From the NCBI GenBank assembly GCA_965371015.1, contig CBDUWU010000002.1, positions 1-46,442 on the forward strand: a stretch of 46,442 nucleotides of DNA, read 5' to 3'. The notes under the pieces were generated by a model. The model worked only from the letters and a program-made list of their open reading frames with translations, had not been told where the DNA came from and made no database searches. This DNA is from an uncultured bacterium (GTDB lineage: Bacteria; Krumholzibacteriota; Krumholzibacteriia; WVZY01; JAKEHA01). Positions 10,155 through 46,430 of this stretch are shown here, piece after piece (position 1 is the first letter of the stretch; every line of letters begins with the position of its first letter). A program made the translations under genes and the position numbers.

Positions 10155-10157
10155 CCC

Positions 10158-10505
10158 GTGGGCAAGACGATCGTATGCCACTGCGAAGACATCTCGCTGG
10201 AAGACTTCTACTCGGCGCTCGAGCAGGGTTACAACGAGATCGAGTCGATCAAGCGGTTCACCGGAATCGGCACGGGCAAGTGCCAGGGCAAGTGCTGTCT
10301 CATCCAGACACTCCGCGAACTGGACAGTCCCGGCGGACGAATGGCGGTGACCGGCGGAACGGGAGCCGGCCCGGGATCTCCCATGACCCCTCCGACGACC
10401 GCCGAGCTGGACGCGAAAATCCACCTCCCCACCATCCGGCAGCCGGTGGTCCCGTTGAGGATCGACGACATTATCGAAGCCAAAGAAGGAGAAGACTCGC
10501 CGTGA
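10158..10505 (+). CDS. small BFD-like [2Fe-2S]-binding protein
   Basis: GTG start 8 nt after AGGGAG. VGKTIVCHCEDISLEDF...GIGTGKCQGKCC shows the CxC...CxxxC pattern of Fer2_BFD. Confidence 0.75.
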   Translation: MGKTIVCHCEDISLEDFYSALEQGYNEIESIKRFTGIGTGKCQGKCCLIQTLRELDSPGGRMAVTGGTGAGPGSPMTPPTTAELDAKIHLPTIRQPVVPLRIDDIIEAKEGEDSP

Positions 10506-13391: not shown

Positions 13392-13421
13392 TTGACACGT
13401 TTTCCGCACCCGCGATATTCT
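13392..13421 (+). promoter_or_regulatory. sigma70-type promoter candidate for the sensor gene (TTGACA-18-TATTCT)
   Basis: TTGACA at 13392-13397 is the 'TTG start' of the ORF-track model. TATTCT lies at 13416-13421. Confidence 0.4.
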
Positions 13422-13481
13422 GCAGCCGAACGGGGAACAATTGCCAGAAACCGTCATCCCGACTGTGGACAAGAAGATCTC

Positions 13482-15563: not shown

Positions 15564-17678
15564 CTAGTGCTCGTCTCCGCGGACGAGGATCCTGGCGTCG
15601 ACGACGCGGCACTCGTCCCGCTCGGGCCGCACGATCACGGGGTTCATGTCGAGTTCGGCGATCAACTCGGTGTCCGTCACCAACTGCGCGAGCCGCTGGA
15701 TGGACTCCACGATGAACTCGATGTCCACGCGGACCTCTCCGCGCACCCCTTCGAGCAGCGGGAACGACTTGATCTCGTGGACCATCTCCTGCGCGTCGAC
15801 GTCGGTCACCGGCAGCACGCGAAAAACGATATCACGCACGATCTCCACGTACTTGCCGCCCATACCGAACATCAACAGCGGGCCGAACTTCGGGTCCTGG
15901 GTAACCCCGAGGATCACTTCCTTGCCCGGGAGGGCCATTTCCTGTACGACAAATCCCTCAACCTGCTGGAACATGCCCGACGAGCCGACGTTGGCCTCGA
16001 TGCGCTGGCGCGCCTCGACCAGGTCGTCCTCGTCCTCGATGCCGACTTCGACACCGCCGATGTCCGACTTGTGTACGATCGCTTCCCCATCGACCTTCAA
16101 TACCAGCGGATACCCCACTTTTTTCGCCACCGACACCAGGTCGCCGCCGAGCGGGACCACCGTTTGCCGGCAGACGGGAAAACCGTACGCGCTCAACACC
16201 GTGTGAACTTCGTCGGGAGCGAGATAACCGCCGCCGTTCTTGTGCTTTTTCTCCAGCACGTCGAGAGCGGCTTTCTTTTTGACCTTGAACGTCCGGACAT
16301 TTCCGGCCGGAATCGTCCGCCATTTGCAGTACCGGACCATCGCCGCGGCGACCTCCGTCGCCGCTTCGGGAAACCGGTAGTACGGCACCACGTCCGCTAC
16401 CTTGTCGGGGATGACGTCGTAATACGACTCTTCCGCCATGACCACGGCGAGGACCGGCTTGTCGTGGTTGCGGCTCACCTCGGTGATTTTCTGGACGACG
16501 TCGAGGGGTTCGATCATCAGTGGCGGTACGAAAATCGGGATAGCGATGTCGACGCCGGGGTCAGAGAGTACGATTTCGAGGCATTCCGCGTATTCCCTCG
16601 AACCCGCGCCGGAAATCATGTCGATGGGATTGTGTACGCTCGCTTCGGCGGGGAGCAGCGCCGTCAGGCTCGCTTCTGTATCTTCGCTCAGCTCGGCAAT
16701 TTTTAACCCGTGCGACTCCACGCTATCGGCCGCCATGATCGCGGGGCCGCCGGCGTTGGTCACGATGGCGACCCTGTCGCCCCTGGGCAGCGGAGAGCGT
16801 CCGAACGCCGCCACTACATTAATTAGGTTTTCGATGGAAGACACGCGGATCACACCGCACTGGCGCAGCAGGGCGGCGGCGGCCACCTCGAGTCCCGCCA
16901 GGGATCCGGTGTGCGAACTCGCCGCCCGGGCTCCGGCCGCCGAAGTGCCGGACTTCACCGTGACGATCGGCTTTTTCTTCGAAATCCGCTTTGACAGTTC
17001 GGTGAACCGCATGGGGTCGTCGAACGACTCGAGGTAGAGGCCGATGACGCCGGTGTGCTCGTCGTTCTCCCAGTATTCGAGCAGGTCGACGGCCGACACG
17101 TCGGCCTTGTTACCCACACTGGCAAAGTAGGAAAACCCGAGGTTGAGCTTGTGCGCCGCCAGTATGATCGCCACCCCCAACGCGCCGCTCTGGGTCATGA
17201 ATGCGAGATTGCCCTGTTTGGGAGTGCTCGGCGAAAAGGTGGCGTTCATGTGCACTTCCGGCGTGGCCGCAATCACTCCCATGCAGTTGGGGCCGATGAT
17301 GCGCATGCCGTATTTTTTGGCGATCTCGACGAGCTCGCGTTCGCGCACGATACCCTCACCGCCGACTTCCTTGAACCCGGCGCTGATAATGACCATCCCC
17401 TTGATTCCCTTGCGGCCGCAGTCTTCCGCCGCCATCAGCACGTGTTCCTTGGGTACGACGATGACGGCGAGGTCGACGGGGTCGGGAATACTCAACACCG
17501 TGGGATAACACTTGGTGCTGTGTATGTACTGGTAGCGGGGATTGACCGGGAATATCGTTCCGTTGAATTCGAAGTTGAACAGGTTGCGGATGATCTCCCT
17601 GCCGATACTGCCACGGCGGGTGGTAGCGCCGATAATGGCGATTGATTTCGGTTTGAAAATAGCGTCCAACGATTGCAC
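15564..17678 (-). CDS. ADP-forming acetyl/acyl-CoA synthetase (fused alpha-beta, NDP-forming acyl-CoA ligase family)
   Basis: Start moved to GTG 17678, 8 nt after GGAGGA. VQSLDAIFKPKSIAIIGATTRRGSIGREI is the CoA-binding domain. Also has GPNCMGV, a succinyl-CoA-ligase-like domain and a C-terminal ATP-grasp. No GNAT domain. Confidence 0.9.
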   Translation of the reverse strand: MQSLDAIFKPKSIAIIGATTRRGSIGREIIRNLFNFEFNGTIFPVNPRYQYIHSTKCYPTVLSIPDPVDLAVIVVPKEHVLMAAEDCGRKGIKGMVIISAGFKEVGGEGIVRERELVEIAKKYGMRIIGPNCMGVIAATPEVHMNATFSPSTPKQGNLAFMTQSGALGVAIILAAHKLNLGFSYFASVGNKADVSAVDLLEYWENDEHTGVIGLYLESFDDPMRFTELSKRISKKKPIVTVKSGTSAAGARAASSHTGSLAGLEVAAAALLRQCGVIRVSSIENLINVVAAFGRSPLPRGDRVAIVTNAGGPAIMAADSVESHGLKIAELSEDTEASLTALLPAEASVHNPIDMISGAGSREYAECLEIVLSDPGVDIAIPIFVPPLMIEPLDVVQKITEVSRNHDKPVLAVVMAEESYYDVIPDKVADVVPYYRFPEAATEVAAAMVRYCKWRTIPAGNVRTFKVKKKAALDVLEKKHKNGGGYLAPDEVHTVLSAYGFPVCRQTVVPLGGDLVSVAKKVGYPLVLKVDGEAIVHKSDIGGVEVGIEDEDDLVEARQRIEANVGSSGMFQQVEGFVVQEMALPGKEVILGVTQDPKFGPLLMFGMGGKYVEIVRDIVFRVLPVTDVDAQEMVHEIKSFPLLEGVRGEVRVDIEFIVESIQRLAQLVTDTELIAELDMNPVIVRPERDECRVVDARILVRGDEH

Positions 17679-17776
17679 TGGTAATGTCCTCCGTAAATTT
17701 TGCTGCAAGCCTCCCCAACCCTACCACATCCGCGGATACGGTCAACCTGCACTCGGGGCGTCCGGGGGGGGGTCGT

Positions 17777-28458: not shown

Positions 28459-30645
28459 CTAGAGACTTTCGCTCGAAATACCCATCGTCTTGAGGACGAA
28501 TGAGTAAATGTCGGCGTATTCCTCGATGACCTTGGTCATCGGCTTGCCGCCCCCGTGTCCCGCCTTCATTTCGACGCGCAACAGGAGCGGATTCTTGCCG
28601 CTGTCCGCCGCCTGCAGCGTCGCGGCGAATTTCTTCGCGTGTGACGGCACGACGCGGTCGTCGGTATCGGCGCTGGTGATGAGCGTCGGCGGATACGTCG
28701 CGCCCGGTTCGACGTTGTGCAAAGGCGAGTACTCGTACATGAACTTGAAGTGCTCGGGGTCCGCCTCGGCGTTACCGTAGTCGCTCACCCAATAGCGCCC
28801 CACCGTGAACTTGTGGTAACGGAGCATGTCGGTCACCGGGACACGGCATACCACGGCGCCGAACAGCTCGGGACGCTGTAACAGGCACGCCGCCACCAGC
28901 AGGCCGCCGTTGCTGCCGCCGCTGATCAGGAGACGCGGAGTGCTCGTCCAGCCTTCGGCAATGAGATACTCGGCCGCGGCGATGAAATCGTCGAACACAT
29001 TCTGCTTGTTCCCGAGGATGCCCCCCTGGTGCCACTCTTCTCCGTACTCTTCGCCCCCGCGGATATTCGCTACCACATAAACACCGCCCATCTCGAGCCA
29101 CAGCAGGCGGCTGGCGCTGAAGTATGGCGTCATGCTGACGTTGAACCCACCGTAGCCGTAGAGCCAGCACGGATTCTGGCCGTCTTTCTCGAGCCCCTTC
29201 TTGTGGGTCACGAACATCGGGACCCGCGTCCCGTCTTTCGATTCGAAGAAGTACTGCTCGGTAACGTATTTGGAAGAATCAAAATCAATCTCGGGTTCGC
29301 GGAAGACGGACAGTTCGCTTTTCGCAAAGTCGTAGCGGTATGCCGTGGTCGGATAGACGTAAGACGTAAAGCCGTAAAACATCTCCTTGTCCGTGCGTTT
29401 TCCCGTTATGCCCCACACAGAACCGATCGTGGGCATCTCGATGTCGCCCGCCGGCTTGCCTTTCTTGTCGAACAATTTGATCTGATTGTGGGCGTCGTGC
29501 ATGTACCCTACGACGAACTTGTTATCCACCATCATGGCGAAGTCGATGACGTCCTTGCTCTCGGGAATGATTTCTTTCCAGTTCTTGCGGTCGGGATTGT
29601 CGACGTCGATGGCGATGATCCGGCTTCGCGGCGCATCGAGCGTCGTATTGAAGAACCACGTCGACCCGATGTTGTCTACGAAGACGTAGCGCGCTTCGTG
29701 CAGGTCCAGCAGCGTGGTAAAGTCACCGTCGTTCTCGACCTTGCGGTAGTAGATACCGTTGCGGTCGTCGGTCCCGTGGTACGCGTATAAAATCAGGTAC
29801 TTGCCGTCGTCCGTGATCCCCGGGCCGAAGCCGTACTCTTTGTTGGCCTCGTCCTCGTAAACGAGGACGTCTTCCGACTGCGGAGTGCCGAGTTTGTGCC
29901 AGTAGACGCGGCTGAAGTTGTTCATATCTTTTTCCGGCACCTCGCCCTCGGCGGGAAACCGGTTGTAGTAGAAGCCCGAGTTGTCGTGCTTCCACGCGAT
30001 GCTGGAGAACTTGCACCACTCGAGGACTTCATCGAAGTCCTTGGCCGCGTCGATGTCGCGGACGTGAATTTTCTGCCAGTCGCTGCCCGAGCTCGACAGA
30101 CCGTAGGCGAGCAGCGTGCCGTCGTGGCTGTACTCCTTGGCGTTGAGCGCGATCGTTCCGTCCTCGCTCAGTGTATTGGGGTCGATCACGACGGAGGCCT
30201 GTCCGTCGAGCGACTTCTGCATGTAGAGAACCGACTGGTTTTGCAGCCCGTCGTTCTTGGTGAAGAAATAGCGGTCCCCGTGTTTATAGGGGAGCGAATA
30301 GCGCGGGTAATTCCAGATGTTGGTGAACCAGTCGACGATCTTGTCGCGTCCCGCGTAGGAGTCAACGTAACCGCGGGTCAACTCGTTCTCCGCGTTGACC
30401 CACTCGATCGTATCATCGGCGTCGGGGTCCTCGAGCCAGCGGTACGGATCCGCCACGATGGTGCCGTGGTAGTCGTCGGCGACGTCGACTTTGTTGGCTT
30501 CCGGGTATTTATATTCGCCGGCTTCGCCGGCATGGACGGCGTCGAACACCGTCCCGGCCATGAAGACGGCGGCCACGGAGAACGCGATCAACGCTACGGT
30601 TTTGCACACGCCGCAGCTTTGCCGCACCGGTTGATTCGATGACAT
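28459..30645 (-). CDS. prolyl oligopeptidase (S9A), N-terminal signal/anchor
   Basis: Start moved to ATG 30645, preceded by AGGAGGAG. DPYRWLED. Ser-Asp-His triad context GGSNGGLL, D in ADTDDRV, and AGHGGG. Confidence 0.9.
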   Translation of the reverse strand: MSSNQPVRQSCGVCKTVALIAFSVAAVFMAGTVFDAVHAGEAGEYKYPEANKVDVADDYHGTIVADPYRWLEDPDADDTIEWVNAENELTRGYVDSYAGRDKIVDWFTNIWNYPRYSLPYKHGDRYFFTKNDGLQNQSVLYMQKSLDGQASVVIDPNTLSEDGTIALNAKEYSHDGTLLAYGLSSSGSDWQKIHVRDIDAAKDFDEVLEWCKFSSIAWKHDNSGFYYNRFPAEGEVPEKDMNNFSRVYWHKLGTPQSEDVLVYEDEANKEYGFGPGITDDGKYLILYAYHGTDDRNGIYYRKVENDGDFTTLLDLHEARYVFVDNIGSTWFFNTTLDAPRSRIIAIDVDNPDRKNWKEIIPESKDVIDFAMMVDNKFVVGYMHDAHNQIKLFDKKGKPAGDIEMPTIGSVWGITGKRTDKEMFYGFTSYVYPTTAYRYDFAKSELSVFREPEIDFDSSKYVTEQYFFESKDGTRVPMFVTHKKGLEKDGQNPCWLYGYGGFNVSMTPYFSASRLLWLEMGGVYVVANIRGGEEYGEEWHQGGILGNKQNVFDDFIAAAEYLIAEGWTSTPRLLISGGSNGGLLVAACLLQRPELFGAVVCRVPVTDMLRYHKFTVGRYWVSDYGNAEADPEHFKFMYEYSPLHNVEPGATYPPTLITSADTDDRVVPSHAKKFAATLQAADSGKNPLLLRVEMKAGHGGGKPMTKVIEEYADIYSFVLKTMGISSESL

Positions 30646-30712
30646 AATAGTCTCCTCCTGTATGTGGAATTTGTCTCGGGAGCCGTCATTATAATACACT
30701 CGCCGGCCCGTC

Positions 30713-30741
30713 TTGACAGTACGCATTTCAGGAGGTATCGT
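30713..30741 (+). promoter_or_regulatory. sigma70-type promoter candidate for the thi operon (TTGACA-17-TATCGT)
   Basis: TTGACA at 30713-30718, 17-nt spacer, TATCGT at 30736-30741. Confidence 0.45.
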
Positions 30742-30749
30742 AGGAACGA

Positions 30750-30800
30750 GACGGGGGTGCCCGGCCGTCATCCGCCGGGCCGGGCTGAAATCAAACCCAC
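30750..30800 (+). promoter_or_regulatory. THI-box-like element (5' half of a TPP riboswitch aptamer only)
   Basis: GGGGUGC, then a P3-like stem CCCGGCC...GGCCGGG, then CUGAAA (consensus CUGAGA), then ACCC. The ACCUGAUCUGG..GCG..GGGA half is not recognisable before ATG 30820. Confidence 0.3.
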
Positions 30801-35183: not shown

Positions 35184-35876
35184 TTACTCCAGCGCCGCGC
35201 GCAGGGCCGCCCTGGCGAGCAGCCGTGTGGAGTCGAGTACGGGCAGCGGTGAATTCTCGGGCGTCACGATCAGCGGAATTTCCGTGCAGGCGAGCGCGAC
35301 GGCGTCACAACCGTCATTCGCCATCTCGCCGATTAACCCGGTAAAGTACTCCTGCGCTTCTTTGGTGAAGCGGTGGGCGACCAGTTCGTCGAATATGATC
35401 TTGTTGATCAGCTCGCGATCCTTGGCGCCCGGTATCGTGTTCTCGATGCCGACCTCCGACAGCTTGTCGCTGTAAACGGGTCCGTCCATCGTATACGTCG
35501 TCCCGATGATGCCGAGGCGTTTGAACCCCTCGCGCTGGGCGGCCATTGCCACTTCCTCGGCGATGTGCAGCCAGGGAAGGCTCGACTTTTCGACCACCGC
35601 ATCGTAGACGCGGTGAATCGTGTTGTCGGGGCAGATCACCAGTTCGGCGCCCGCCTTCGCGATCTTTTCCTGCGACGACAGCATCAGCGCGGCCACGCCG
35701 TCCCACGCCCCCGCCTCCATCAGTCTTACGTAATCGCTGAACGGGTGCGTGTGTATACTCACTTCCGGGTGGGCGTGACGGGCGCCCAGCAATGCGGGCG
35801 CTTCTGTGCAAATCGTCGTGTAGCAAAGCGCCGCGCCCTCGGCACTACAGGCTACGATTCCGATGTGTTTGGCCAC
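35184..35876 (-). CDS. Asp/Glu/hydantoin racemase superfamily protein (single-Cys variant)
   Basis: Start moved to GTG 35876, 10 nt after GGAGG. GAELVICPDNTIH aligns to the ..PCNTAH.. motif, and VALACTEIP aligns to ..GCTE... Confidence 0.75.
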   Translation of the reverse strand: MAKHIGIVACSAEGAALCYTTICTEAPALLGARHAHPEVSIHTHPFSDYVRLMEAGAWDGVAALMLSSQEKIAKAGAELVICPDNTIHRVYDAVVEKSSLPWLHIAEEVAMAAQREGFKRLGIIGTTYTMDGPVYSDKLSEVGIENTIPGAKDRELINKIIFDELVAHRFTKEAQEYFTGLIGEMANDGCDAVALACTEIPLIVTPENSPLPVLDSTRLLARAALRAALE

Positions 35877-36028
35877 TCTCTCCGAGCCTCCTTGGGAAAT
35901 ATCGGGCAGCCGTTGGATCTCCCCTTCCCTGCTGCCCGTCGTAACTGCATTCAACGTTCCACTGTAATCGCAAACCAGTATTTTTAAAAGAGAATTCCTT
36001 TCAGGGGACACCGTTATCCCGAAAGTCG

Positions 36029-36058
36029 TTGACAGTCATCGCGGATCACGGGGATACT
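36029..36058 (+). promoter_or_regulatory. sigma70-type promoter candidate for the acyl-CoA ligase gene (TTGACA-18-GATACT)
   Basis: TTGACA at 36029-36034 is the 'TTG start' of the ORF-track model. GATACT lies at 36053-36058. Confidence 0.4.
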
Positions 36059-36109
36059 CAGGGGGTCCGCCCTCCGAACGATCAAACAGATTCCGACAGG
36101 GGACCCCCC

Positions 36110-37894
36110 ATGCCTATCGAAACGATTCCCCAGCAGCTTCTCCACGTTGTCGAGACCTTCAACAAGCCCGACGCTTTTCGGTACAAACCCCCGGGGGGCG
36201 GTCGCTATGTCGACGTGTCACACCGGGAGGCGCTCGAGCGCGTCTACCACGCCGCCCTCGGATTGCACGCGCTTCAACTCGCCAAACAGGACCGCGTGGC
36301 ACTGCTCTCCGAGAACCGGTTGGAGTGGGCGGTGGCCGACCTTGCCATCCTGTCGGCCGGATGCATCAACGTCCCGGTATACGCCACGCTGCCCGCGCCA
36401 CAGGTGGAATATATTCTCTCCGACTCCGAGGCGAGGGCGGTGTTCGTTTCGACGCGGGATCAGCTGGCCAAGGTGGAAGCCAGCCGGAGCAAGCTGCCGA
36501 AGCTGCAGCACATTATTTCATTCGACCCGGAATGCGACGCGGAAGGCGTCATCACCCTGGACGCGCTCGTCGCCCGCGGCGAAATGGTCGCGGACAAGCC
36601 CGCCTACAAGGACCTCATCGCCACGATCGGCAAGTACGACTGGGCGAGCATAATCTATACCTCGGGAACGACGGGAGTCCCTAAGGGCTCGATTCTCACG
36701 CACTGGAACTTTCTCAGCAACGTCAACGCGGCGCTGTCGGTCCTCCGCATCACACCGACCGACTCGTGTCTGTCTTTTCTGCCGTTGAGCCACGTCTTCG
36801 AGCGCACGGCCGGATACTACACCATGCTCACCGCCGGCGTTTCGATCGCCTACGCCGAGACGATGGAATCCGTGGCCGACAACATGCTGGAAATATCCCC
36901 CACGATCATGATCGCCGTCCCCCGGTTCTACGAAAAGATTCACGGGCGCGTCATGGCGGCGGTCGAGCAGGGTTCAGGGATGAAAAAAGGTCTGTTCAAG
37001 TGGGCGATGAAGACGGGAGATAAGTACGTGGCGGAAACGCTCGCCGGCAAAGTGGGTTTCATGACCAGCCGCAAACGCGGATTGGCCGACGCTCTTGTAT
37101 TTCGCAAACTCAAGGCTCGAACAGGCGGAAGTATCCGCTTCTTCGTATCGGGCGGGGCTCCGCTCAACCCGGGAATCAACCGGTTTTTCCACGCGGCGGG
37201 CTTAACGCTGCTGGAGGGCTACGGTTTGACAGAGACGTCACCCATGATTTCGGCCAACACATTCGAGCACCTCAGATTTGGAACGGTGGGCAAGCCCCTC
37301 CCCGGTGTCGACGTCAAGATTGCCCCGGACGGCGAGATCCTGGTGCGCGGCGACCTCATCATGCAGGGCTACTACAAGAAGCCGGATGAGACCAATGAGG
37401 CCATCGTCGACGGTTGGTTCTATACCGGCGACATCGGACATATCGACGAGGACGGTTTTCTTTCCATTACCGACCGCAAAAAGGACATCATCGTCACGGC
37501 GGGGGGCAAGAACGTCGCGCCCCAGCCGATGGAGAACTGCCTCAAAAACAGCAGATTCATCGACGAGGTGATCGTGATCGGGAACGGTCGCAAGTTCGTT
37601 TCGGCGCTGATCATCCCCAACTTCGAAAACCTGCGTCAGTTCGCCGTCGGCCATCACATCGCCCACACCTCGGACGATGAGCTGGTCGCCCACGCCCAGG
37701 TTTTCGAGCTCTATACCGACGAAATCGCACGGCTCTGCGAACCGTTCGCCGGGTTCGAGCAGATCAAGAAATTCACGATTCTCGCGACACCGCTCACCAT
37801 CGAGTCGGGCGAACTCACCCCGAGCCTCAAGGTCAAGCGCCGGATCATCGAGAGCAAGTACAAGGACCAGATCGACTCGCTTTACGCGGATTGA
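36110..37894 (+). CDS. long-chain fatty acid--CoA ligase (AMP-forming)
   Basis: Start moved to ATG 36110. IIYTSGTTGVPKG, GYGLTETSP and GWFYTGDIGHIDEDGFLSITDRKKD. Confidence 0.9.
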   Translation: MPIETIPQQLLHVVETFNKPDAFRYKPPGGGRYVDVSHREALERVYHAALGLHALQLAKQDRVALLSENRLEWAVADLAILSAGCINVPVYATLPAPQVEYILSDSEARAVFVSTRDQLAKVEASRSKLPKLQHIISFDPECDAEGVITLDALVARGEMVADKPAYKDLIATIGKYDWASIIYTSGTTGVPKGSILTHWNFLSNVNAALSVLRITPTDSCLSFLPLSHVFERTAGYYTMLTAGVSIAYAETMESVADNMLEISPTIMIAVPRFYEKIHGRVMAAVEQGSGMKKGLFKWAMKTGDKYVAETLAGKVGFMTSRKRGLADALVFRKLKARTGGSIRFFVSGGAPLNPGINRFFHAAGLTLLEGYGLTETSPMISANTFEHLRFGTVGKPLPGVDVKIAPDGEILVRGDLIMQGYYKKPDETNEAIVDGWFYTGDIGHIDEDGFLSITDRKKDIIVTAGGKNVAPQPMENCLKNSRFIDEVIVIGNGRKFVSALIIPNFENLRQFAVGHHIAHTSDDELVAHAQVFELYTDEIARLCEPFAGFEQIKKFTILATPLTIESGELTPSLKVKRRIIESKYKDQIDSLYAD

Positions 37895-38065
37895 CCGGGA
37901 CTCCGTCCTGGACCGGATAGCCAGAAGCACCGGACACAGGGACCCCGGCTTCGGCTCGAATCGCGGAAACCCCGTGCCTGTCCGCGAATCACCAGCTTAT
38001 CGTGGCCGCATGGCTTCTCATCCGCTATAATAGAGCACGTACTTCCCCTGCGATTGCGCCGTGCC

Positions 38066-40621
38066 ATGCGTCATTGTATCGCCATCATCTGTCTGCTAAC
38101 CGTCGTGATCCCACCGGCTTCGGCGCGCGGTGAAGCCGCGTCCGATTCGCTCTACCGCGCCAACCACCCGCGTCTGCTCCTTACCCGCGGGGAACTCCCC
38201 GCGCTGCGGGCGAAGGTCCGCGACGGGACCCGCGACGGAGAGGCGTACCTCTACGCCCGCCACCTGATGGACGACGTGTTTCCCGGATACGACAACGACA
38301 AGATGCTGTCCCACTCCTACGGCGTGGGGACGTTCCCCACCGTGTGCATGCTCGCCTGGCTCGAAGCGGTCCCCGACACGGCGGCGATCAACCTGGGGCG
38401 CCGCCTGGTGGATCACACCATCGCCGCCTACGGACCCGACGACAACGTCTACTACGCGCCACTTCGCCTCCGCCTCCTCGCGCTCGGATACGACTCGTTC
38501 TACCAGGACGCGACGGCGCCCGAGCGCGCCGCCGTGCGTGCTGAAATGGAAGCCTACATCGACACCATGGTCACAACGCGCACGTACGAGTATTGGAAGT
38601 ATCGCCCTTACCTCGCCAACATCTCCACGATGATCGCGTCGGCGCTCGGGCTCGCCGCGATCTGCCTCGACGGCGAAACCGACCCCGCCCGCGTCGAGGC
38701 GGCGCTGTCGGCGTCGTACGAGTACATCGACCAGTGGCTCGAGTACCAGCTCGACCCCGGCGGCTCCTACAAGGAAGGCGCCATGTACGCCGGCTGGTGC
38801 ATGCGCAACCTCTGCTACTACTTCTGGGCGCGCAAGCGCTTCGACGGGTTCGACTACTCGAACGAGGACCGGATCCGCAACATCGAGCGCTGGGTCGCCC
38901 ACACACTGTTGCCTATCGGCAACGCGTGGGTCAATAACGTTGGCGACGCGACGACGCTCAACTTCCCCTGGTCGCGGCACCACACCTACTTCGACTGGGC
39001 GCAGTGGGAGTGGAACAGCGGGTTGTCGGCGTGGCTGTGGGAATATATCCTGGGGTGGTATGGACACGATTCGGGCGAGCTCGCCGACCCGACCGCCACC
39101 ATGCTGTGGCACCGTACCCTCGTCCCCGTCGACCCGGAGTCGATACTCCCCCCCACGAGGGTGCTGTGGGCGGACCGCGGCCAGTACTATTTCCGCACGG
39201 GGTGGCCGTTGTACGGATCTTCGTCGGATGACATCGTACTGAGCTTCTACTCGGGGAAATTCCACGGCGGGCATTCGCAGGAGGACCAGAACAACTTCAC
39301 CCTCTACGGTTACCTTTCGCGGTTCGTCATCGACCACGGGTATGGCGAGCCAGGGCGCACGAGCGCGGCGCACAACATGGTGTTCATCGACGGCGCCGGC
39401 CAGCATCACTCGGGCGCATCGGTCGGCACCGACGGAAGGATCGCCGAATACCTTCCGGGTGGACTCGCCGACTACATCATGGGCGACGCGACGGCGGCGT
39501 ATACCACCTATAGCGAGTTCAACCGGCCCGGATATCCCTTTCCCGAGAACGACTGGTCGTACGGATACCGGGGCGCCAATCCCGTCCGTTACGCCCACCG
39601 CCGGCTCCTCGTCGTCCACGGCCGGGAGGCGCTTCCGTACGTGATCCTGATGGACGACATCGACAAGGACGGCGCCACGCACGACTACGAGTGGCGGCTC
39701 CACACCGACGCGTCCAATACGGTGGACGTGTCGCAAAATCCGGTAGTTATCGGCGGCCCCGGCGGGTGGATGGACGTCCACGTCGTTGCGCCCGCGTTCG
39801 GATCGCTGACGGCGGAAACGTCGGTGTTCGACAACGGCCACGAAGACCCCGACGCCACGGTGATCTCTCTTTCCACGACGGATGACGCGGCGCATTTCAT
39901 TTTTTTACTGCTGATGCGAGACGGCAACACCCCGGTCCTCACTCCGGAGATCACGAACGCCTCGTGGGGCGAGGCGTTCGTGATCGAAAGAGCCGACAGC
40001 GTCGTCGATTCGTTTGCGCGCAACCACTCGGGCGAACGGATCGGGTTCCACGATTTCGTGACCGACGCCACCATGACGCTGACGCGGAGCGCGTCACGGT
40101 CGCTGACCAGTTTCGTCATAACAGGTGCGACCGTGCTGAAGTGGGGCAAATTTCCCTGGGTGACGGTCGCCGACGGCCCGCTGGGTGTGTCGTACGGCGG
40201 CGGCGAGATCCACATCGACCGGCGCGATGCGGCATTCCGCATCTATGCGCCCGGGGGCGAAACAGTCCTCTACCAGGGCTCGCCCGTGCGTACGCGGCGC
40301 GACGGCGACTACGTGGTGTCGGCGGAGTACGAGGCGTCATCGGTCCCCGGAGTAACGATCACGGCGTATCCCAATCCGTTCAACACCGACACCCGCATCA
40401 AAGTCAACATGGCGCGTGCCGGACACCTGAAAGTCGAGATATTCGACGCGGCGGGCCGGCGCGTCCGGAAGCTGTGGGAAGGCGAGGCAGACTTCGGGGA
40501 GCGGATCGTGGTCTGGGACGGCTGGAGCGACAAGGGCCGGCCCGTCGCCAGCGGGGTTTACCTGGTGCGCGCGGTCTCGCCGGATGGCGTTGCTTCCACC
40601 AAACTCGTTCGCATCAGATAA
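38066..40621 (+). CDS. heparinase II/III-like polysaccharide lyase with C-terminal T9SS sorting domain
   Basis: ATG 38066 with signal peptide MRHCIAIICLLTVVIPPASA. GGHSQEDQNNFTLYGY...IDHGYGE...AHNMVFIDGAGQ. The C-terminal 88 aa are ITAYPNPFNTDTRIKV...GVYLVRAV...KLVRIR. Confidence 0.85.
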   Translation: MRHCIAIICLLTVVIPPASARGEAASDSLYRANHPRLLLTRGELPALRAKVRDGTRDGEAYLYARHLMDDVFPGYDNDKMLSHSYGVGTFPTVCMLAWLEAVPDTAAINLGRRLVDHTIAAYGPDDNVYYAPLRLRLLALGYDSFYQDATAPERAAVRAEMEAYIDTMVTTRTYEYWKYRPYLANISTMIASALGLAAICLDGETDPARVEAALSASYEYIDQWLEYQLDPGGSYKEGAMYAGWCMRNLCYYFWARKRFDGFDYSNEDRIRNIERWVAHTLLPIGNAWVNNVGDATTLNFPWSRHHTYFDWAQWEWNSGLSAWLWEYILGWYGHDSGELADPTATMLWHRTLVPVDPESILPPTRVLWADRGQYYFRTGWPLYGSSSDDIVLSFYSGKFHGGHSQEDQNNFTLYGYLSRFVIDHGYGEPGRTSAAHNMVFIDGAGQHHSGASVGTDGRIAEYLPGGLADYIMGDATAAYTTYSEFNRPGYPFPENDWSYGYRGANPVRYAHRRLLVVHGREALPYVILMDDIDKDGATHDYEWRLHTDASNTVDVSQNPVVIGGPGGWMDVHVVAPAFGSLTAETSVFDNGHEDPDATVISLSTTDDAAHFIFLLLMRDGNTPVLTPEITNASWGEAFVIERADSVVDSFARNHSGERIGFHDFVTDATMTLTRSASRSLTSFVITGATVLKWGKFPWVTVADGPLGVSYGGGEIHIDRRDAAFRIYAPGGETVLYQGSPVRTRRDGDYVVSAEYEASSVPGVTITAYPNPFNTDTRIKVNMARAGHLKVEIFDAAGRRVRKLWEGEADFGERIVVWDGWSDKGRPVASGVYLVRAVSPDGVASTKLVRIR

Positions 40622-40644: not shown

Positions 40645-41496
40645 ATGGCCAACTGCTTTTTCGTCAGCGATCTGCACGGCAAGCCGCACCGATACGAGCG
40701 GCTGTTTGAAGCCATCGGGGCCGAAATCCCGTCTGCCATCTTCATCGGGGGAGACCTGTTCCCCCACATGGCCGGTCACGAGGGCGTCCCGTCGGATTTT
40801 CTCGGTGAGTTCCTCGGTCCGCTCCTGGAAAAAACCAGACAGCAGCTCAAGGATCGGTACCCGACCGTGTTCGTGATTCTCGGAAACGACGACACGAAGA
40901 GTGAAGAGGCCACCGTCAAGACGATTGCCGACCGCGGTCTGTGGCACTACGCCCACCGGCGGCGATACGAGTGGGGACGGCACCAGGTCTATGGATATGC
41001 CTGCGTCCCGCCGTCGCCGTTTCTGCTGAAGGACTGGGAAAAGTACGACGTATCGAGGTATACGCCGCACGGCAGTGTTTCACCCGAAGAGGGATACCGC
41101 AGCGTGCCCGTCGACCCGAGCGATATCCGCCACGCCACCATCGAACAGGATCTCGAAGAACTGGCGGGTACGGACGACGTTACGAACGCCCTGTTTCTCT
41201 TCCACACCCCCCCGCACGAAACTCGCCTCGACCGGGCCGCACTCGACGGCAAGATGATCGACCACGTTCCGTTCGACGTGCACGTGGGCAGCATCGCCGT
41301 GCGCCGCTTCATCGAAGCAAGGCAACCTCTGATCACACTCCACGGCCATATCCACGAGTCTACGCGCCTGACGGGCGAGTGGCGCGACAGAATCGGCCGC
41401 ACCCATTCGTTCAACGCGGCACACGACGGTCCGGAGCTCTCTCTTATTCGTTTTGATCCGAGTGACCCCGCCGGGGCAGAGCGGGAATTGTTGTAG
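40645..41496 (+). CDS. calcineurin-like metallophosphoesterase
   Basis: ATG 40645. FFVSDLHG, GGDLF, LGNDD, FHTPPH and LHGHIHE. The ORF-track start at 39964 is rejected. Confidence 0.85.
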   Translation: MANCFFVSDLHGKPHRYERLFEAIGAEIPSAIFIGGDLFPHMAGHEGVPSDFLGEFLGPLLEKTRQQLKDRYPTVFVILGNDDTKSEEATVKTIADRGLWHYAHRRRYEWGRHQVYGYACVPPSPFLLKDWEKYDVSRYTPHGSVSPEEGYRSVPVDPSDIRHATIEQDLEELAGTDDVTNALFLFHTPPHETRLDRAALDGKMIDHVPFDVHVGSIAVRRFIEARQPLITLHGHIHESTRLTGEWRDRIGRTHSFNAAHDGPELSLIRFDPSDPAGAERELL

Positions 41497-41511
41497 GTCT
41501 CACCGCCGCTC

Positions 41512-44500
41512 TCAACCGTCCCCACCCGGCTCGAGGAACCGGGCCGCGTCGGTGACCGCCCCGATCTTGCAGGCGTAGCTGGTCTGCTTTTCGATATCAT
41601 CATCGGTCACATAGTGCACGTCCAGCAACCCGTCCGAACGGTACCCCGTCCTCAGGTAGTTGAACTCGGCGAGGGACCGGCTCCAGCCATCGAGCCACAG
41701 CGACAGCTTCTCACGCTGCTCTTCGCTGCCATCGATGTGGACGATGAGATCGAGGTCGCTTCCCGGCCCGGCCGTGGCGTTTTTGACGCTCCCGAACACG
41801 TAGACCCCTTTGACGCCAAAAACGTCCCGATCCAGCATCCGCGCCATTTTTTTGGCCATACGCAAACGCCACCGCCAGTGATCTTCGGACCGGCTTTCCT
41901 TCCGGAGTTGTCCGGCGGGTTGTTCATCAACAGTCTGCACGCCGGGCTGTGAAAGAACACCAACGGCCTCGTCCAGATCGGCATTGAGGAGAATCTTCAG
42001 TATCTGCCCGTCCGCAACATCGGGGATATCGATGACGTGGATAACGTCACTTAGGCGCTCGTACTCCGGCAACAAATCGGCCAGGATGTTCTTTTTTCGT
42101 CGCAAAAACCCTTCGTTGAACACCGTGTCGTCATCGTCGGGATAAAGCGGGAGATAGCGGATATCCGCTTCTACGAGGTCCTGAAAAAAGTGGGTGCCGA
42201 ATGATAACTCGGGCACGTAGTTTTCTTTTTGACGCGCGACCTCGATCAGGGCACAGGTATTGTTGATGTCAGAGTAAGTGACCCCCACACCCAGCTTGAT
42301 ATCACCTCGACTACCCCAACGCCCCGGACCGATCAGCACAAACTGACGTTTGGGAAGTATCTTGTTGAGCCGGCTCACTGCACGCCCGACGTCCTTGAGG
42401 TCTCCCAGTTCCGGTAGTTCCCCGTACCGCTCCGGATCCACGTAGACGACATGGGAGACGTCTGGGACCCGACCGTTCGAAATATATCGGTTGGCGGTAA
42501 AGATCACCCTTTCCCGGGGGAGGTCCCGCGGGATCGGAGCGGGTTCGAAATCGGGAGACGCGCTCTGCGCCCGGCACTGCAGGAGATACAGGTTCTGTCC
42601 ATCGGACGCAAACTCGATGTCGACCGGGTATCCGGTACTCTCTCCGAGAAAATCCAGAACGGCCTTGACCCTGGAAACGAATTCACCGTCCTCGATCAAC
42701 CCCTGGAAAGTGAACGCGAGATCGTCGGAATCCCAGTCGGGCTCCAGCCCTCTCGGCCGCCGGATCTGCTCGCGCGTCACGATCGAAACGAGATCACGAA
42801 TCGCCGGGTAGTCTTCCCCCGCCTCCTTGAGCAACTTTCGGACTTCAATCGTAACGAAGGTGTTTTGCTCGAGGTCAATCACGTCGATCATTTTGGGAGA
42901 GTAGCGCATGACTTCGTCGGGTGTGACGTTGACGCGGAGTCCGGGCTGACCCGGCGCCAGAAGAACGGGATAGTCGTCGCTGATCCGGTCGACGGCCCTC
43001 GTCCCCAGCCCGGGAACCATGCGGACGAGCCCATCGTCGCGCTGGATCCGCGGCGACCAGCGAAATTCGTTGCGCGAAAAAGCCACTCCGGCATAGGCCG
43101 GCAGGAAGTAGCGGCCCACGCGCCGTCCGACCACCTCCTGGATCATCACCGCCATTTCCTCGTGAACGTCAAGAAGGCCGCGTTCGGCCCTGTATTCTAT
43201 CGGGTCCGGCCCGAAAATCGACGCGTACACCTCGGCGATCGCGTCCTGGAGCGCTTCGAGCCGTTCGCGTTTACTTCCCTGGTTGGCAACAAAAAGGCTC
43301 TTGTACTTGCCCGAGAACGCCGCTCCCGTCTGATCTTCCAGGAGACTGGAACTGCGCACCACGAGGGGCTTGTCCTCGAAGTCATCCAGCGCAACCGCCA
43401 ATCCGTTGACCATTTCGGCCGGGAATCGGGAGTTCTTGAATACCTGTACGATCCGCGGGTAGTCGCGACGGATCCGTTCGACATCGGCGTACTTGTGGTC
43501 GTAGATATCGTCGAGATTGTTGTGGCGAATGAATTCGAGCTGGCTGTCAGAACTGACGTACCACGTCCGGGGGTTTTTGATCTGATCGAACATCTCGCGA
43601 TTTCCCAGGGAATTCTTCAAAAGAGTGCAGGCAAGAAACAACCCGGTACTCTTGCCGCCCAGGCGCCCGTGGCTCTGCGCGGGGTAGACGATGTGATTGA
43701 GCAATTCGTGAAAATCGGAGACCCGCACCTGGTTCTTCATAATATTGAGAAATTCCAGGTCGCTGCTGAAGAATCGGCGGAGCAGCGAGACGTGGAGGCT
43801 CTTCTGGAGAGCCGGAGGAAGCTCGTCTTCCTCGATCTCTGAAGACTTGAACCGGTCGAGGGCCGCGGCGACGTCGGAAAGGCTGCTGTGGGGCGTTTCG
43901 AGCGTCTCTATCAGCCCGCTGGCTTTGTCCTCTTCAATCCACGCGCGGATATTGGCGATCATTTCCTCGTCGCTGCAATGCTCCGCCGCGATGGTGAACG
44001 TTTTGTCGGCGAGGGCCGCGACGTCGCGCAGGTCGGATCGGCGGGCCGGCCGGTTCTCGTCCTCCTCCCCCGCCGTCTCGACGTCCTCGGAGACGAATTC
44101 GCGCAAGAGATCTCCTGCGTCTCCGGCTCCCGTCCAGCAGAGATAGTTGATCATCTTGCGGGTGATTCGGGCGAGCAGGGCGTGATCCGTTCTCCTGAGG
44201 AACGCCATAATGACCTGCCATTCGCTGCTCGACGCGTTCGACGCTTTTTCGACTGCGTTCGTCCAGTTTTCGTGATCGGAACGCAGTCGCTTCTGGAGAA
44301 CGTACAGGCCGATGCGCTCGGCTATCGTGTTTATCAGCCGACGTTCTTCTTTTAGAAACGGGCCCTCGTCGGCCGCAGGCCGCTGTTCTCCGTAGCAAAC
44401 CACCACCTCCCCGATAACACGTTGCTCGAACTCGATGTCGGCCTGCTGGCGCCACTCGGTCTCCTCGCAACCGTCACTTTCGTACTTGTCCTCCTCGATC

Positions 44501-44694
44501 CTGATCCTCGCCTGGCACACGTCGGGATACTGCCATCCCGGCGGCAGCGCGGCGGCCAGCTCGTTCATGATCTCGTCCTCGGGGCGGTCGAGCTGACTCA
44601 ACAATTCGTCGACCCGGTAGAGGCAATTCAGCTCTTTGGCGCGTTCCTGGAGGGAATGCATTATTTCGCCGAGAGGGTTTTCCTGTTCCTTCAT
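41512..44694 (-). CDS. multidomain protein: GAF-like sensor, helical linker, PPDK_N (PEP/pyruvate-binding ATP-grasp), GRWGS/HFF C-terminal module and Pol-beta-type nucleotidyltransferase
   Basis: ATG 44694 lies 2 nt after the upstream stop (TGAAGATG); 1060 aa. KELNCLYRVDEL...GPFLKEERRLINTIA spans aa about 10-135. GGKSTGL, VVRSSSLLED, MAVMIQEVV, VDIEFA and LYLLQCRA mark the ATP-grasp. Then LIGPGRWGS...FGTHFF. C-terminal VYVFGSVKNATAGPGSDLDLIVHI. Confidence 0.8.
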   Translation of the reverse strand: MKEQENPLGEIMHSLQERAKELNCLYRVDELLSQLDRPEDEIMNELAAALPPGWQYPDVCQARIRIEEDKYESDGCEETEWRQQADIEFEQRVIGEVVVCYGEQRPAADEGPFLKEERRLINTIAERIGLYVLQKRLRSDHENWTNAVEKASNASSSEWQVIMAFLRRTDHALLARITRKMINYLCWTGAGDAGDLLREFVSEDVETAGEEDENRPARRSDLRDVAALADKTFTIAAEHCSDEEMIANIRAWIEEDKASGLIETLETPHSSLSDVAAALDRFKSSEIEEDELPPALQKSLHVSLLRRFFSSDLEFLNIMKNQVRVSDFHELLNHIVYPAQSHGRLGGKSTGLFLACTLLKNSLGNREMFDQIKNPRTWYVSSDSQLEFIRHNNLDDIYDHKYADVERIRRDYPRIVQVFKNSRFPAEMVNGLAVALDDFEDKPLVVRSSSLLEDQTGAAFSGKYKSLFVANQGSKRERLEALQDAIAEVYASIFGPDPIEYRAERGLLDVHEEMAVMIQEVVGRRVGRYFLPAYAGVAFSRNEFRWSPRIQRDDGLVRMVPGLGTRAVDRISDDYPVLLAPGQPGLRVNVTPDEVMRYSPKMIDVIDLEQNTFVTIEVRKLLKEAGEDYPAIRDLVSIVTREQIRRPRGLEPDWDSDDLAFTFQGLIEDGEFVSRVKAVLDFLGESTGYPVDIEFASDGQNLYLLQCRAQSASPDFEPAPIPRDLPRERVIFTANRYISNGRVPDVSHVVYVDPERYGELPELGDLKDVGRAVSRLNKILPKRQFVLIGPGRWGSRGDIKLGVGVTYSDINNTCALIEVARQKENYVPELSFGTHFFQDLVEADIRYLPLYPDDDDTVFNEGFLRRKKNILADLLPEYERLSDVIHVIDIPDVADGQILKILLNADLDEAVGVLSQPGVQTVDEQPAGQLRKESRSEDHWRWRLRMAKKMARMLDRDVFGVKGVYVFGSVKNATAGPGSDLDLIVHIDGSEEQREKLSLWLDGWSRSLAEFNYLRTGYRSDGLLDVHYVTDDDIEKQTSYACKIGAVTDAARFLEPGGDG

Positions 44695-44696
44695 CT

Positions 44697-46430
44697 TCAG
44701 TCCTTTTTGCCGTAACAGACGGTCCCTCGCCCGGAGCGTCCGTCCACCTTGACCAGCAGCGGTTGATCGAGCTCGACGTGACAAACGTAATCCGTTTCCC
44801 GGACGACGCGTTGGCGGGACAGCCAGTCCCACGCGATGGGGGTGGCACTCTCGTGGTGCACCGTAAAGTAACTCACGCGGAAACTCGATATATTGTGAAA
44901 GAAATGTGCGCCCTGGCTGGGTTCGACGGTCATTCCTTCCAGTGTTGATTCCACAATGACTCTGGCTCCGCTGATCTGCCCCCAGTTGACCGGTATGCCC
45001 AGCCACGGATCGGAGCTGCCCCATCTTCCGAATCCTATCAACATGTAGGGTCTTTTCTGGTCGAACAGTCCGCGGTTGAAGGTCTCTATTTCGCCAACGA
45101 TTACCGGCGTGAGCCGCGCCTCGAACACATCCGGTTTGACGAATACAACGTCCCGAATCGCATTCTCGACACCGTTTCCCATCACACGGTTCGACGCCAG
45201 CAGAAGGTCGCCGGTCCCTTCAACGATTTCCGGCACTTCGACACGTTGCTTCGACACCATCATGGGGCGTACCTGCAGGAAGGCAAGCCGGGCGTCTCCA
45301 TCTTCCCGACGTGGAAACGTCATGGCAAACTCCATCTCCACCGCACTGCCCGTCGCGTTTCCGAACACGTCGAGAAGTTTTTTGATCACCGCATTCACGG
45401 GCCAGGTCTGCAAATCAAGCAACGGGGCAAAGTCCAGCACGCGCGCCCCCTTGATGCCCACACCGGGCGAGAGCCGGTCGCGCCCCGGATCGTAAGTGGA
45501 CGCGACGAACCGCAGCGTGTCGTCGTAGTCGGCATCCTCGAGGCCGCTTTCAGCGAGGTATTCCGTTTCTATCGTCGGATCAAAAGCGGGGGGCTTGCCC
45601 AGGTTGACAGCCCAGAAACGAAGCTGCGTGTTCTTCATCAGCTCACCCGTCGTCGCAAACGGCGGCCGCGACCGGGGATGCGCGGGTGAATACGCCCACG
45701 ACACCCCCCCGTCGACGATCGTCTTCCCCAGGCCGAGGGCGAGATTGACCACGCCCTCTTCCGGTTTCGCGGAGCCCGTTCGATAGTAGTTGTACGACCG
45801 GCACACGCCGGAGAGTTGGGGGTAAAAACGATTTCCGAACTGTTCACCCACGACTTCCTGGATAACGACCGCCATTTTCTCGTCGCGCACCGTCTTGTCC
45901 GTCGCCTGGATATAACTCGCCGCGGCCCGGGAGAATGTCGACGCATAGACAAATTTGATCGCTTCGACAAGGCTCTTGAACCGGGCGTCAGGGTCGGCCT
46001 GGTTGTTCGGAATCATCTTGGTTTCGTAAATACCCGCGAAGGGATGCGCCAGTGCATCTTCAAGAAGGCTGGATGAACGGAGCGCGAGCGGCCGACCTTT
46101 GGTCTGTTCGACCAGGGCACGCAGGTCACCGACGTGCTCGACGGGCAGGTCCGCTTTCTGGAAGGCAAGCGCGATCCGCTCGTCCGCCACTCCGGAGAGC
46201 GCGATCTCGTACAACCCGTTCCGCTCCATGAAGGCGTCGAACAAGTCCGTCGTGAGCACGGTGGACGTGGGGATGTCGATCCGGATTCCCTGAAATTCGC
46301 CGGCCTCGAAGTGTTCGTTGAGTACGTCGCGCCCCTGGACGAGCCCGGTCGCTTTGCCACCCAGCCCACCATCCCCGATGCGCATGAACGGCTCGCCCGA
46401 TTCGAAGAACTTCCGGGCGAACCGCGGCAC
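44697..46430 (-). CDS. PPDK_N (PEP/pyruvate-binding ATP-grasp) domain protein with GRWGS/HFF C-terminal module; 5' end may continue past the window
   Basis: GTG 46430 is taken as the start, but the frame stays open to 46442. GGKATGL, ALRSSSLLED, MAVVIQEVV, VEMEFA and LAFLQVRPM. Then LIGFGRWGS...QGAHFF. Confidence 0.8.
   Translation of the reverse strand: MPRFARKFFESGEPFMRIGDGGLGGKATGLVQGRDVLNEHFEAGEFQGIRIDIPTSTVLTTDLFDAFMERNGLYEIALSGVADERIALAFQKADLPVEHVGDLRALVEQTKGRPLALRSSSLLEDALAHPFAGIYETKMIPNNQADPDARFKSLVEAIKFVYASTFSRAAASYIQATDKTVRDEKMAVVIQEVVGEQFGNRFYPQLSGVCRSYNYYRTGSAKPEEGVVNLALGLGKTIVDGGVSWAYSPAHPRSRPPFATTGELMKNTQLRFWAVNLGKPPAFDPTIETEYLAESGLEDADYDDTLRFVASTYDPGRDRLSPGVGIKGARVLDFAPLLDLQTWPVNAVIKKLLDVFGNATGSAVEMEFAMTFPRREDGDARLAFLQVRPMMVSKQRVEVPEIVEGTGDLLLASNRVMGNGVENAIRDVVFVKPDVFEARLTPVIVGEIETFNRGLFDQKRPYMLIGFGRWGSSDPWLGIPVNWGQISGARVIVESTLEGMTVEPSQGAHFFHNISSFRVSYFTVHHESATPIAWDWLSRQRVVRETDYVCHVELDQPLLVKVDGRSGRGTVCYGKKD

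Follow-up and report, generated by a model that had tools for sequence, protein, structure and literature searches.

GlnD and GlnE control the ammonium-assimilating enzyme glutamine synthetase by reversible nucleotidylylation, and NifA, NtrC-like proteins, CodY and PtsP sense 2-oxoglutarate, glutamine or amino acids. The PPDK_N enzymes characterised so far all use phosphohistidine, to our knowledge. For glutamate dehydrogenase (GDH), which stands at the junction of carbon and nitrogen metabolism, we know of no dedicated covalent control system that has been established in bacteria. The combination of a receiver domain with a PPDK module has been recorded in the two-component census of Galperin as a response regulator with enzymatic output, its function being left unassigned (PMC5847659). 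Here we analysed a stretch of 46,442 nucleotides from an uncultured bacterium of the Krumholzibacteriota (contig CBDUWU010000002.1, positions 1 to 46,442; this whole stretch is called the window) and, in it, a minus-strand gene whose 1060-residue product joins a GAF-like putative sensor domain, a PPDK_N-type ATP-grasp core and a nucleotidyltransferase (NTase), and whose homologues lie beside GDH genes. We tentatively propose that this large protein is a metabolite-sensing switch that transfers phosphoryl and nucleotidyl groups to GDH or to a partner paralogue, and that a phosphoesterase reverses the modification.

The original prediction for this DNA, made from the sequence alone, had proposed four modules in the 1060-residue protein. 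All four were upheld, PPDK_N and the NTase by Pfam matches and the GAF-like and helical parts by fold models, and a position check of every motif that had been quoted found each of them in place. The large-protein gene, its two neighbours and the parts of the large protein are as follows (aa, amino acids; AF2, AlphaFold2; pLDDT, predicted local distance difference test score):

40645-41496, plus strand: metallophosphoesterase, 283 aa, convergent with the large-protein gene; Metallophos (Pfam) at E 1.8e-9, 38.8 bits against a cut-off of 21.5
41515-44694, minus strand: large-protein gene, intact, 1060 aa; stop codon 41512-41514
44700-46430, minus strand: small paralogue, 577 aa, with PPDK_N (aa 23-398, Pfam) and C-domain only; stop codon 44697-44699
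44245-44694, minus strand: aa 1-150, GAF-like putative sensor domain (AF2 model and Foldseek)
44617-44634, minus strand: aa 21-26, motif ELNCLY
within the same domain, minus strand: aa 56-58, motif YPD
within the same domain, minus strand: aa 111-117, motif GPFLKEE
43669-44244, minus strand: aa 151-342, acidic helical domain (AF2 full-length model)
44026-44088, minus strand: aa 203-223, disordered acidic loop of the helical domain (pLDDT < 50)
42550-43668, minus strand: aa 343-715, PPDK_N-type ATP-grasp nucleotide-binding domain (Pfam PF01326)
41950-42549, minus strand: aa 716-915, C-domain, common to all paralogue classes, carrying GPGRWGS and SFGTHFF
42310-42324, minus strand: aa 791-795, motif GRWGS
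42184-42195, minus strand: aa 834-837, motif THFF
41884-41949, minus strand: aa 916-937, variable disordered joint between C-domain and NTase (pLDDT < 50 for aa 919-937)
41515-41883, minus strand: aa 938-1060, minimal Pol-beta nucleotidyltransferase (PF01909; Foldseek)
41749-41793, minus strand: aa 968-982, motif GS-X10-D-L-D

The longest open reading frame (ORF) of the large gene is 41512-45024 on the minus strand. ATG 44694 is the biological start; an equivalent start is present in 26 of 26 aligned homologues, and the codon is preceded by an AAAGGA ribosome-binding site and lies 2 nucleotides past the point where the 577-aa gene upstream ends. Among the best 120 database homologues, 119 match at 57-78% identity across 97-100% of the query, the one exception being a 693-aa fragment with 92% identity over 65% of the query. 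Most of these homologues are 1045-1101 aa long, eight are fusions of about 1630 aa and one has 1202 aa. The architecture is also unbroken in 80 genome loci, including the complete chromosomes CP054675.1 and OY969696.1. While the joint at aa 916-937 is poorly conserved in sequence, 24 of 27 aligned homologues preserve both its length and its frame, and the assembly or frameshift break that had been suspected at about 41860-41980 is absent, the joint being continuous in the homologues and in the 80 genome loci.

It had also been suggested that the architecture is unusual. It is indeed uncharacterised, but it is not rare: a scan with one genome per species found full-length homologues with 50-78% identity in at least 567 species-level genomes of more than ten phyla, and a filter-free search with aa 716-1060 returned 1886 clusters (50% identity) at E <= 1e-3 and 246 at E <= 1e-30. 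The carriers include Planctomycetota, Krumholzibacteriota, Eisenbacteria, Calditrichota, Acidobacteriota, Ignavibacteria/Melioribacter, Zixibacteria, Cloacimonadota, Gemmatimonadota, Fermentibacteria and others. A look-up of the clusters for a cultured host returned metagenome-assembled genomes only.

The gene context was surveyed in 83 non-redundant loci, with denominators that vary with the available flank, and a gene was called GDH at 60% identity or more to the reference GDH. A GDH gene lies upstream of the large gene on the same strand in 65 of the 66 loci with enough flank, in more than ten phyla and with entirely different genes in the rest of the flanks. When the ORFs of the loci were clustered all against all, the only conserved families were the PPDK_N paralogues, GDH and Metallophos, and therefore the GDH linkage appears to be selected rather than inherited synteny. 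This enzyme (GDH1) is a hexameric GDH of the Thermococcus/Bacillus type (1euz, E 4e-126). In the closest relative (78% identity), the order is GDH, small paralogue, large gene, convergent Metallophos gene and acyl-CoA synthetase, and the window keeps this order from the small paralogue on, with the phosphoesterase and the acyl-CoA synthetase set apart by one extra gene. The window, which ends 12 nucleotides upstream of the small paralogue, contains no GDH gene; judging from the 78%-identical relative, the window's own GDH is almost certainly just past the edge. The sole locus of the 66 without GDH, small paralogue or phosphoesterase nearby (L082:7998-11171) has as neighbours an FtsX/MacB-type permease, a tRNA methyltransferase and a two-component propeller protein.

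The small and the large gene form what we regard as an obligate pair. The small paralogue sits between GDH and the large gene in 63 of 78 loci, and the spacing between small and large gene is mostly -4 or -8 nucleotides; the two are usually translationally coupled, as they are in the window. In several lineages they are fused into one protein of about 1630 aa, for example P0048, which has two PPDK_N stretches and NTP_transf_2. The overlap and the fusion suggest, therefore, that the small and large proteins work together physically.

The PPDK_N core of the large protein passes the Pfam threshold by a wide margin, as PF01326 matches aa 344-715 at E 1e-54 with 186.5 bits against a gathering score of 27. 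We combined the three paralogue classes in an alignment of 71 sequences, and found that G346, G347, K348, R447, S448, S449, E453, D454, E512, Q519, E694, Q706 and R708, including the catalytic residues, are kept in at least 70 of them. In Foldseek searches with the ATP-grasp domain, rifampin phosphotransferase (RPH; 5hv3 and 5hv6) was the best match (E 3e-9 to 3e-8; TMt 0.68), PPDK was also matched, and ATP-grasp ligases such as tubulin tyrosine ligase were weak fold matches. At the level of whole-family models, the best NCBIfam scores were 48 bits for phosphoenolpyruvate (PEP) synthase, against cut-offs of 598 and 739.75, and 34 bits for RPH (RIF_Ptrans_rph), against 999. Pfam found neither a PEP-utilizers_C barrel nor a RIF-binding domain in the 1060-aa protein. 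Assignment of the protein as PEP synthase, PPDK or RPH was rejected on these scores (34-48 bits against 598-999) and on the swivel and substrate domains, which were not found. The labels 'pyruvate, phosphate dikinase' and 'PEP/pyruvate-binding protein' on thousands of database entries are misleading, because the family is without the domains that define those enzymes.

PPDK_N and the GRWGS/HFF motifs had been described as a single core. Both are present, but they do not make up one unit: GRWGS and HFF belong to a separate conserved domain outside PPDK_N, here called the C-domain. Across the 71 sequences, G791, R792, G794, G802, E818, S831, G833, H835 and F836 are identical in all, D798, F837 and Y847 are kept in 70, and W793 in 69. 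His835 (42190-42192) is the sole histidine invariant across the three paralogue classes and is a candidate phospho-carrier on the strength of this conservation. Pfam gave no match for aa 716-930 at E <= 10, and a profile search of the PDB gave no match for the C-domain. With hhalign also taken into account, the GRWGS/THFF C-domain appears to be a conserved, catalytic-looking module without detectable relatives in these searches.

The C-terminal domain is a minimal NTase, as had been predicted. PF01909 (NTP_transf_2) matches aa 959-996 above threshold, with 29.3 bits in the whole protein and 33.2 bits in the domain alone against a gathering score of 21, while MTPAP-like_central just passes (27.9 bits against 27) and Polbeta falls just short (24.5 bits against 26.9). 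G968, S969, D980, D982, H986, D1025 and H1027 are invariant in 27 of 27 sequences, so that the G-S/D-x-D motif and the third carboxylate (D1025) are complete, and the fold agrees: Foldseek matched 2rff, the MNT antitoxins 7bxo, 8xeo and 7ae9, and HI0073 (1no5), with probabilities of 0.84-1.0. In 7ae9 the MNT antitoxin was solved together with its HEPN partner in AMPylated form. By sequence, kanamycin nucleotidyltransferase was the best match in the PDB (E 0.012). Identification as an aminoglycoside nucleotidyltransferase was rejected, with the ANT(4')-I model scoring 13.5 bits against 350 and only about 30 residues following the NTase core. So was identification as an MntA antitoxin of a type VII toxin-antitoxin system, for which MntA_antitoxin scored 19.3 bits with a cut-off of 60; the neighbourhood has no conserved HEPN gene, and a classical HEPN-MNT module, already doubted in the original prediction, was set aside.

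At the other end of the protein, the proposed GAF-like domain was confirmed at the level of the fold and not at the level of the sequence. The AF2 model of the N-terminal domain, built on an alignment of 38 sequences, is confident (pLDDT 86.5; predicted TM-score 0.79), and nearly all of its top 50 Foldseek matches in the PDB are GAF domains, with TM 0.5-0.63, probabilities up to 1.0 and a best E of 1.5e-3. Among them are the NtrC-like 4g3k and 4g3v, NifA (8jrc), CodY (8c7t), PtsP (3ci6), PDE5/6 and phytochromes. The model has a long helix (aa 7-32) with ERAKELNCLY, a helix at aa 39-49, four antiparallel strands at aa 60-101, the loop EGPFLKEE and an exit helix at aa 107-149, and is best described as a reduced GAF-like fold of four predicted strands. 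Pfam gave no match for the domain even at E <= 10, with PF01590, PF13185 and PF13492 included, and when hhalign was used to compare it with the canonical GAF domain of a PAS-GAF protein encoded in the window, the probability was 0.2%; membership in the GAF family by sequence was therefore rejected. That PAS-GAF-PAS-receiver protein (13392-15557, plus strand, 722 aa) is of the canonical GAF signalling type and has no recognisable output domain. When the N-terminal domain was used by itself as a database query, only short pieces of this family came back and no other architectures were visible, so that the suggested tie of its signature to histidine-kinase inputs is conjectural.

The invariant residues of the N-terminal domain include C24, Y26, W54, G95, Y101, G111, P112, F113, E116 and E117. 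Cys24 (44623-44625), in the first helix within ERAKELNCLY, is invariant in 27 of 27 full-length and 38 of 38 N-terminal sequences, and such conservation could mean redox or covalent-ligand sensing. The stretch behind the sensor had been called an acidic helical linker of about 200 aa. It is acidic (38 D+E against 23 K+R in aa 136-342, net charge -15) and helical, but it is not a mere linker: most of it is a folded domain of about ten helices in the full-length AF2 model, with pLDDT 75-92 for aa 225-340. The mean pLDDT of that model is 72. No significant Pfam match was found for the helical domain at aa 151-342.

The metallophosphoesterase downstream is of the calcineurin-like type and has a complete active site with the five metal-binding motifs (D9-x-H11, G36-D37, G80-N81-D82-D83, H187 and G234-H235-x-H237). 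None of D9, H11, D37, N81, H187, H235 and H237 varies among 12 orthologues, nor does H233, which stands directly in front of motif V. No close PDB relative was found, and the NCBIfam hints name only LpxH and a phosphodiesterase. The catalytic residues are intact in all three enzymes, the ATP-grasp, the NTase and the phosphoesterase. The link between phosphoesterase and large gene had been put forward as speculative, the gene being convergent. It is indeed convergent in the window, but the link is better than speculative, since the phosphoesterase gene comes directly after the large gene in 41 of 70 loci from different phyla. Its orientation is convergent in 38 loci and co-directional in four, and in two of these four it overlaps the stop codon of the large gene.

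The stop-to-stop gap between the two genes is 15 nucleotides in the window (41494-41514) and -9 to +20 nucleotides in 25 of the 38 convergent loci. With almost no spacer between tail-to-tail genes, the 3' ends of their mRNAs must overlap, and this might make the expression of large protein and phosphoesterase mutually antagonistic. A terminator scan found a hairpin-like match on the plus strand at 41569-41587, inside the large gene; such matches were no commoner than in shuffled sequence. On an Aminicenantes chromosome (L072:11179-16073, minus strand), an OmpR-type response regulator precedes the phosphoesterase on the same strand, and before the regulator lie two Pfam-blank proteins that tblastn relates weakly to the PPDK_N core and the DUF5752 region.

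A second pair of GDH and PPDK_N protein was found in about a quarter of the fully flanked loci, where a GDH of the NADP-GdhA type (758 bits against a cut-off of 536 for the NADP GdhA model) precedes a 989-aa protein composed of a receiver, DUF5752, PPDK_N and the C-domain (L004:12607-17018; also L007, L010, L012, L014, L020, L042, L078, L081 and L083). The receiver protein shares 42-43% identity over about 540 residues with the window's small paralogue, and its own family is large and conserved, with 63-89% identity among the top 120 matches. As judged from gene order and domain content, two GDH types are each tied to a signal-regulated PPDK_N protein. Another relative, P0461 (342 aa), has only an apparently degenerate C-domain, with AHFF kept and GRWGS lost, and the NTase.

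The module as we describe it consists of GDH, the small PPDK_N paralogue, the large protein and often the metallophosphoesterase, so that three enzyme types able to write or erase phosphate or nucleotide marks would stand under a putative metabolite sensor. In the switch that we propose, the GAF-like domain would bind a small metabolite, perhaps an indicator of carbon/nitrogen status, and would gate the two transferases through the helical domain. Since the characterised PPDK_N enzymes use phosphohistidine, the core, a PEP-synthase-type ATP-grasp with the GRWGS/THFF domain, probably relays the phosphoryl group of ATP through His835 and then onward. As a substrate-binding domain is absent from the core, the acceptor would presumably come in trans. 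Protein AMPylators (7ae9) are among the closest structural relatives of the NTase, which therefore probably nucleotidylylates a protein, placing a nucleoside monophosphate on a side chain in the manner of MNT antitoxins. The gene neighbourhoods point to GDH and the paralogue as the only conserved target candidates near the large gene. The likeliest target would be GDH itself or the paralogue docked on GDH, the activity of GDH being set post-translationally, and the metallophosphoesterase, as the presumptive natural eraser, would take the mark off. A broader form of this proposal, that the module is a widespread and previously unrecognised covalent, post-translational control system of GDH with the receiver version serving the second GDH, seems to us possible and somewhat more doubtful than the switch itself.

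Several observations weigh against the proposed switch. The small paralogue is missing in 15 of 78 loci and the phosphoesterase does not adjoin the large gene in 29 of 70. A comparison of GDH1 with solved GDHs revealed no evident additional segment for regulation. Relatives of about 765-790 aa (P0402, P0442, P0459 and P0490) have the helical domain, PPDK_N and the C-domain and are without the GAF-like and NTase domains, and the NTase is therefore accessory to the core. The C-domain was tried and rejected as a swivel domain of the PEP-utilizers type (PF00391) on negative results from Pfam, the PDB profile search, hhalign and tblastn, and is not disproved as one structurally. In this comparison hhalign gave a probability of 0.6% against the swivel domains of E. 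coli PpsA, PtsI and PtsP, with a template profile of only three sequences, and tblastn of swivel domains against all loci gave no support. The pLDDT of 30-40 across aa 791-850 is too low for a structural comparison of the C-domain, and a swivel-analogous role of His835 is possible by inference. Finally, the synteny with GDH fits a metabolic role equally well, and we infer that GDH is modified rather than observe it.

The metabolic role is the most serious alternative, although we consider it rather unlikely. Here the proteins would be enzymes of small molecules: the ATP-grasp would phosphorylate or ligate a GDH-linked metabolite, the NTase would activate it with a nucleoside mono- or diphosphate, the LpxH-like phosphoesterase would hydrolyse it, and the sensors would tune the flux. 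If so, the module would hold novel chemistry around glutamate and 2-oxoglutarate. Characterised PPDK_N enzymes do work on small molecules, and PEP synthase, PPDK, RPH and PigC/RedH are among the weak NCBIfam matches of the large protein; RPH is the best fold match of the core, with tubulin tyrosine ligase-type ATP-grasps as weak ones, the hints for the phosphoesterase (LpxH and a phosphodiesterase) have the same tendency, and operons commonly hold the enzymes of one pathway. The domains that would handle such a substrate are, however, not there, since PEP-utilizers_C and RIF-binding domains are absent, the small paralogue consists of ATP-grasp and C-domain only, and the NTase is minimal, without a C-terminal substrate domain and with closest structural relatives that modify proteins. 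Fusions to receiver and GAF-like inputs are more typical of signalling proteins, and no further pathway genes are conserved nearby.

It is less likely again that the large protein signals nitrogen or carbon status with an output other than GDH, by modifying itself, by modifying the small paralogue only or by making a nucleotide signal, GDH being merely co-regulated. The domain logic would suit this, as GlnD (NTase, hydrolase and sensor) and PtsP (GAF and phosphohistidine) act on signalling proteins and not directly on the metabolic enzyme, and in L082 the large gene occurs without any partner. But co-regulation alone would hardly account for a linkage to GDH that is seen in 65 of 66 loci and recurs with a second GDH type, and the neighbourhood has no conserved target beyond GDH, the paralogue and the phosphoesterase.

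We regard as very improbable that the protein inactivates antibiotics or other xenobiotics twice over through RPH-like and aminoglycoside-NTase-like modules. The idea is suggested by RPH as the best fold match of the core and kanamycin nucleotidyltransferase as the best PDB sequence match of the NTase, but the scores of RIF_Ptrans_rph (34 against 999) and ANT(4')-I (13.5 against 350), the absence of RIF-binding and ANT C-terminal domains, a housekeeping-like conservation of 50-78% identity across phyla, the fixed GDH synteny and the lack of a mobile or resistance context all speak against it. Scarcely credible, too, is a HEPN-less MNT-type toxin-antitoxin or anti-phage component: the MNT antitoxin folds and the weak matches to the PADLOC candidates PDC-S09 (NTase, E about 2e-5) and PDC-S10 (phosphoesterase) are set against a PDC-S09 match that spans only a generic NTase motif of about 35 residues, the MntA score of 19.3 against 60 without a conserved HEPN gene, and a conserved partner that is a core metabolic enzyme. 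That separate genes were fused by an assembly or frameshift artefact, as the disordered and poorly conserved joint might have suggested, is refuted by the layout, which runs on unbroken in 119 of the best 120 homologues (all except one fragment) and in the 80 genome loci, complete chromosomes included.

The other genes of the window would suit an organism that lives by degrading peptides and polymers, with a central role for GDH. They include:

9884-12205, plus strand: type I phosphodiesterase / nucleotide pyrophosphatase
15567-17708, minus strand: ADP-forming acyl-CoA synthetase
28462-30771, minus strand: prolyl oligopeptidase
35187-36011, minus strand: Asp/Glu racemase
36029-37891, plus strand: AMP-binding acyl-CoA synthetase
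38054-40618, plus strand: heparinase II/III-like protein with a C-terminal FlgD_ig domain

The module is found in many environmentally dominant and poorly studied phyla, including Acidobacteriota, Planctomycetota, Ignavibacteria, Gemmatimonadota and Latescibacterota, where it is strongly constrained and fixed beside GDH. Our literature search for this family, DUF5752, the ELNCLY motif or a link between GDH and a dikinase found no paper, the sole mention being the note on the receiver-PPDK combination in the census (PMC5847659).

Each of the described systems shares a part of this module. Like RPH, PEP synthase and PPDK, the large protein has a PPDK_N ATP-grasp with its catalytic residues and one invariant histidine in the domain that follows, which fits the chemistry of the family. 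Unlike them, it has no recognisable swivel, PEP-utilizers_C or RIF-binding domain; its histidine lies in the GRWGS...G-T-H-F-F domain, GAF-like, helical and NTase domains are added, and small and large proteins form a pair. With PtsP (Enzyme I-Ntr) it shares an N-terminal GAF-type sensor placed before a phosphotransfer module and a setting in nitrogen metabolism, and 3ci6 is among its fold matches. PtsP, in contrast, uses PEP, has a canonical swivel domain and TIM barrel in place of an ATP-grasp and acts on NPr, and no sequence similarity to it was found. The receiver-PPDK response regulators of the Galperin censuses have the same core of PPDK_N and C-domain, but their input is a receiver rather than a GAF-like domain, they are without an NTase, and they are paired with a GdhA-type GDH.

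MntA resembles the C-terminal domain in its minimal NTase fold and GS...DxD motif, and it AMPylates a protein partner according to the description of 7ae9. Here, however, a HEPN partner is lacking, the score does not reach the cut-off of the model, and the NTase is fused to an enzyme of 940 residues. GlnD and GlnE, finally, combine a Pol-beta-fold NTase with a removing activity and a metabolite sensor, as the module would. The pieces differ, since in the module the NTase is minimal and MNT-like, removal would fall to a metallophosphoesterase with a gene of its own and not to an HD domain or a second NTase domain, the sensor is GAF-like rather than ACT, and the enzyme is GDH rather than glutamine synthetase. 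No GlnD or GlnE model is among the NCBIfam matches of the 1060-aa protein, and the likeness is one of logic only. By the same logic, we propose AceK with isocitrate dehydrogenase and GlnD/GlnE with glutamine synthetase as the counterparts of the GDH module; if GDH is indeed modified, regulation of this kind would be a new paradigm, on a par with the cascade that adenylylates glutamine synthetase.

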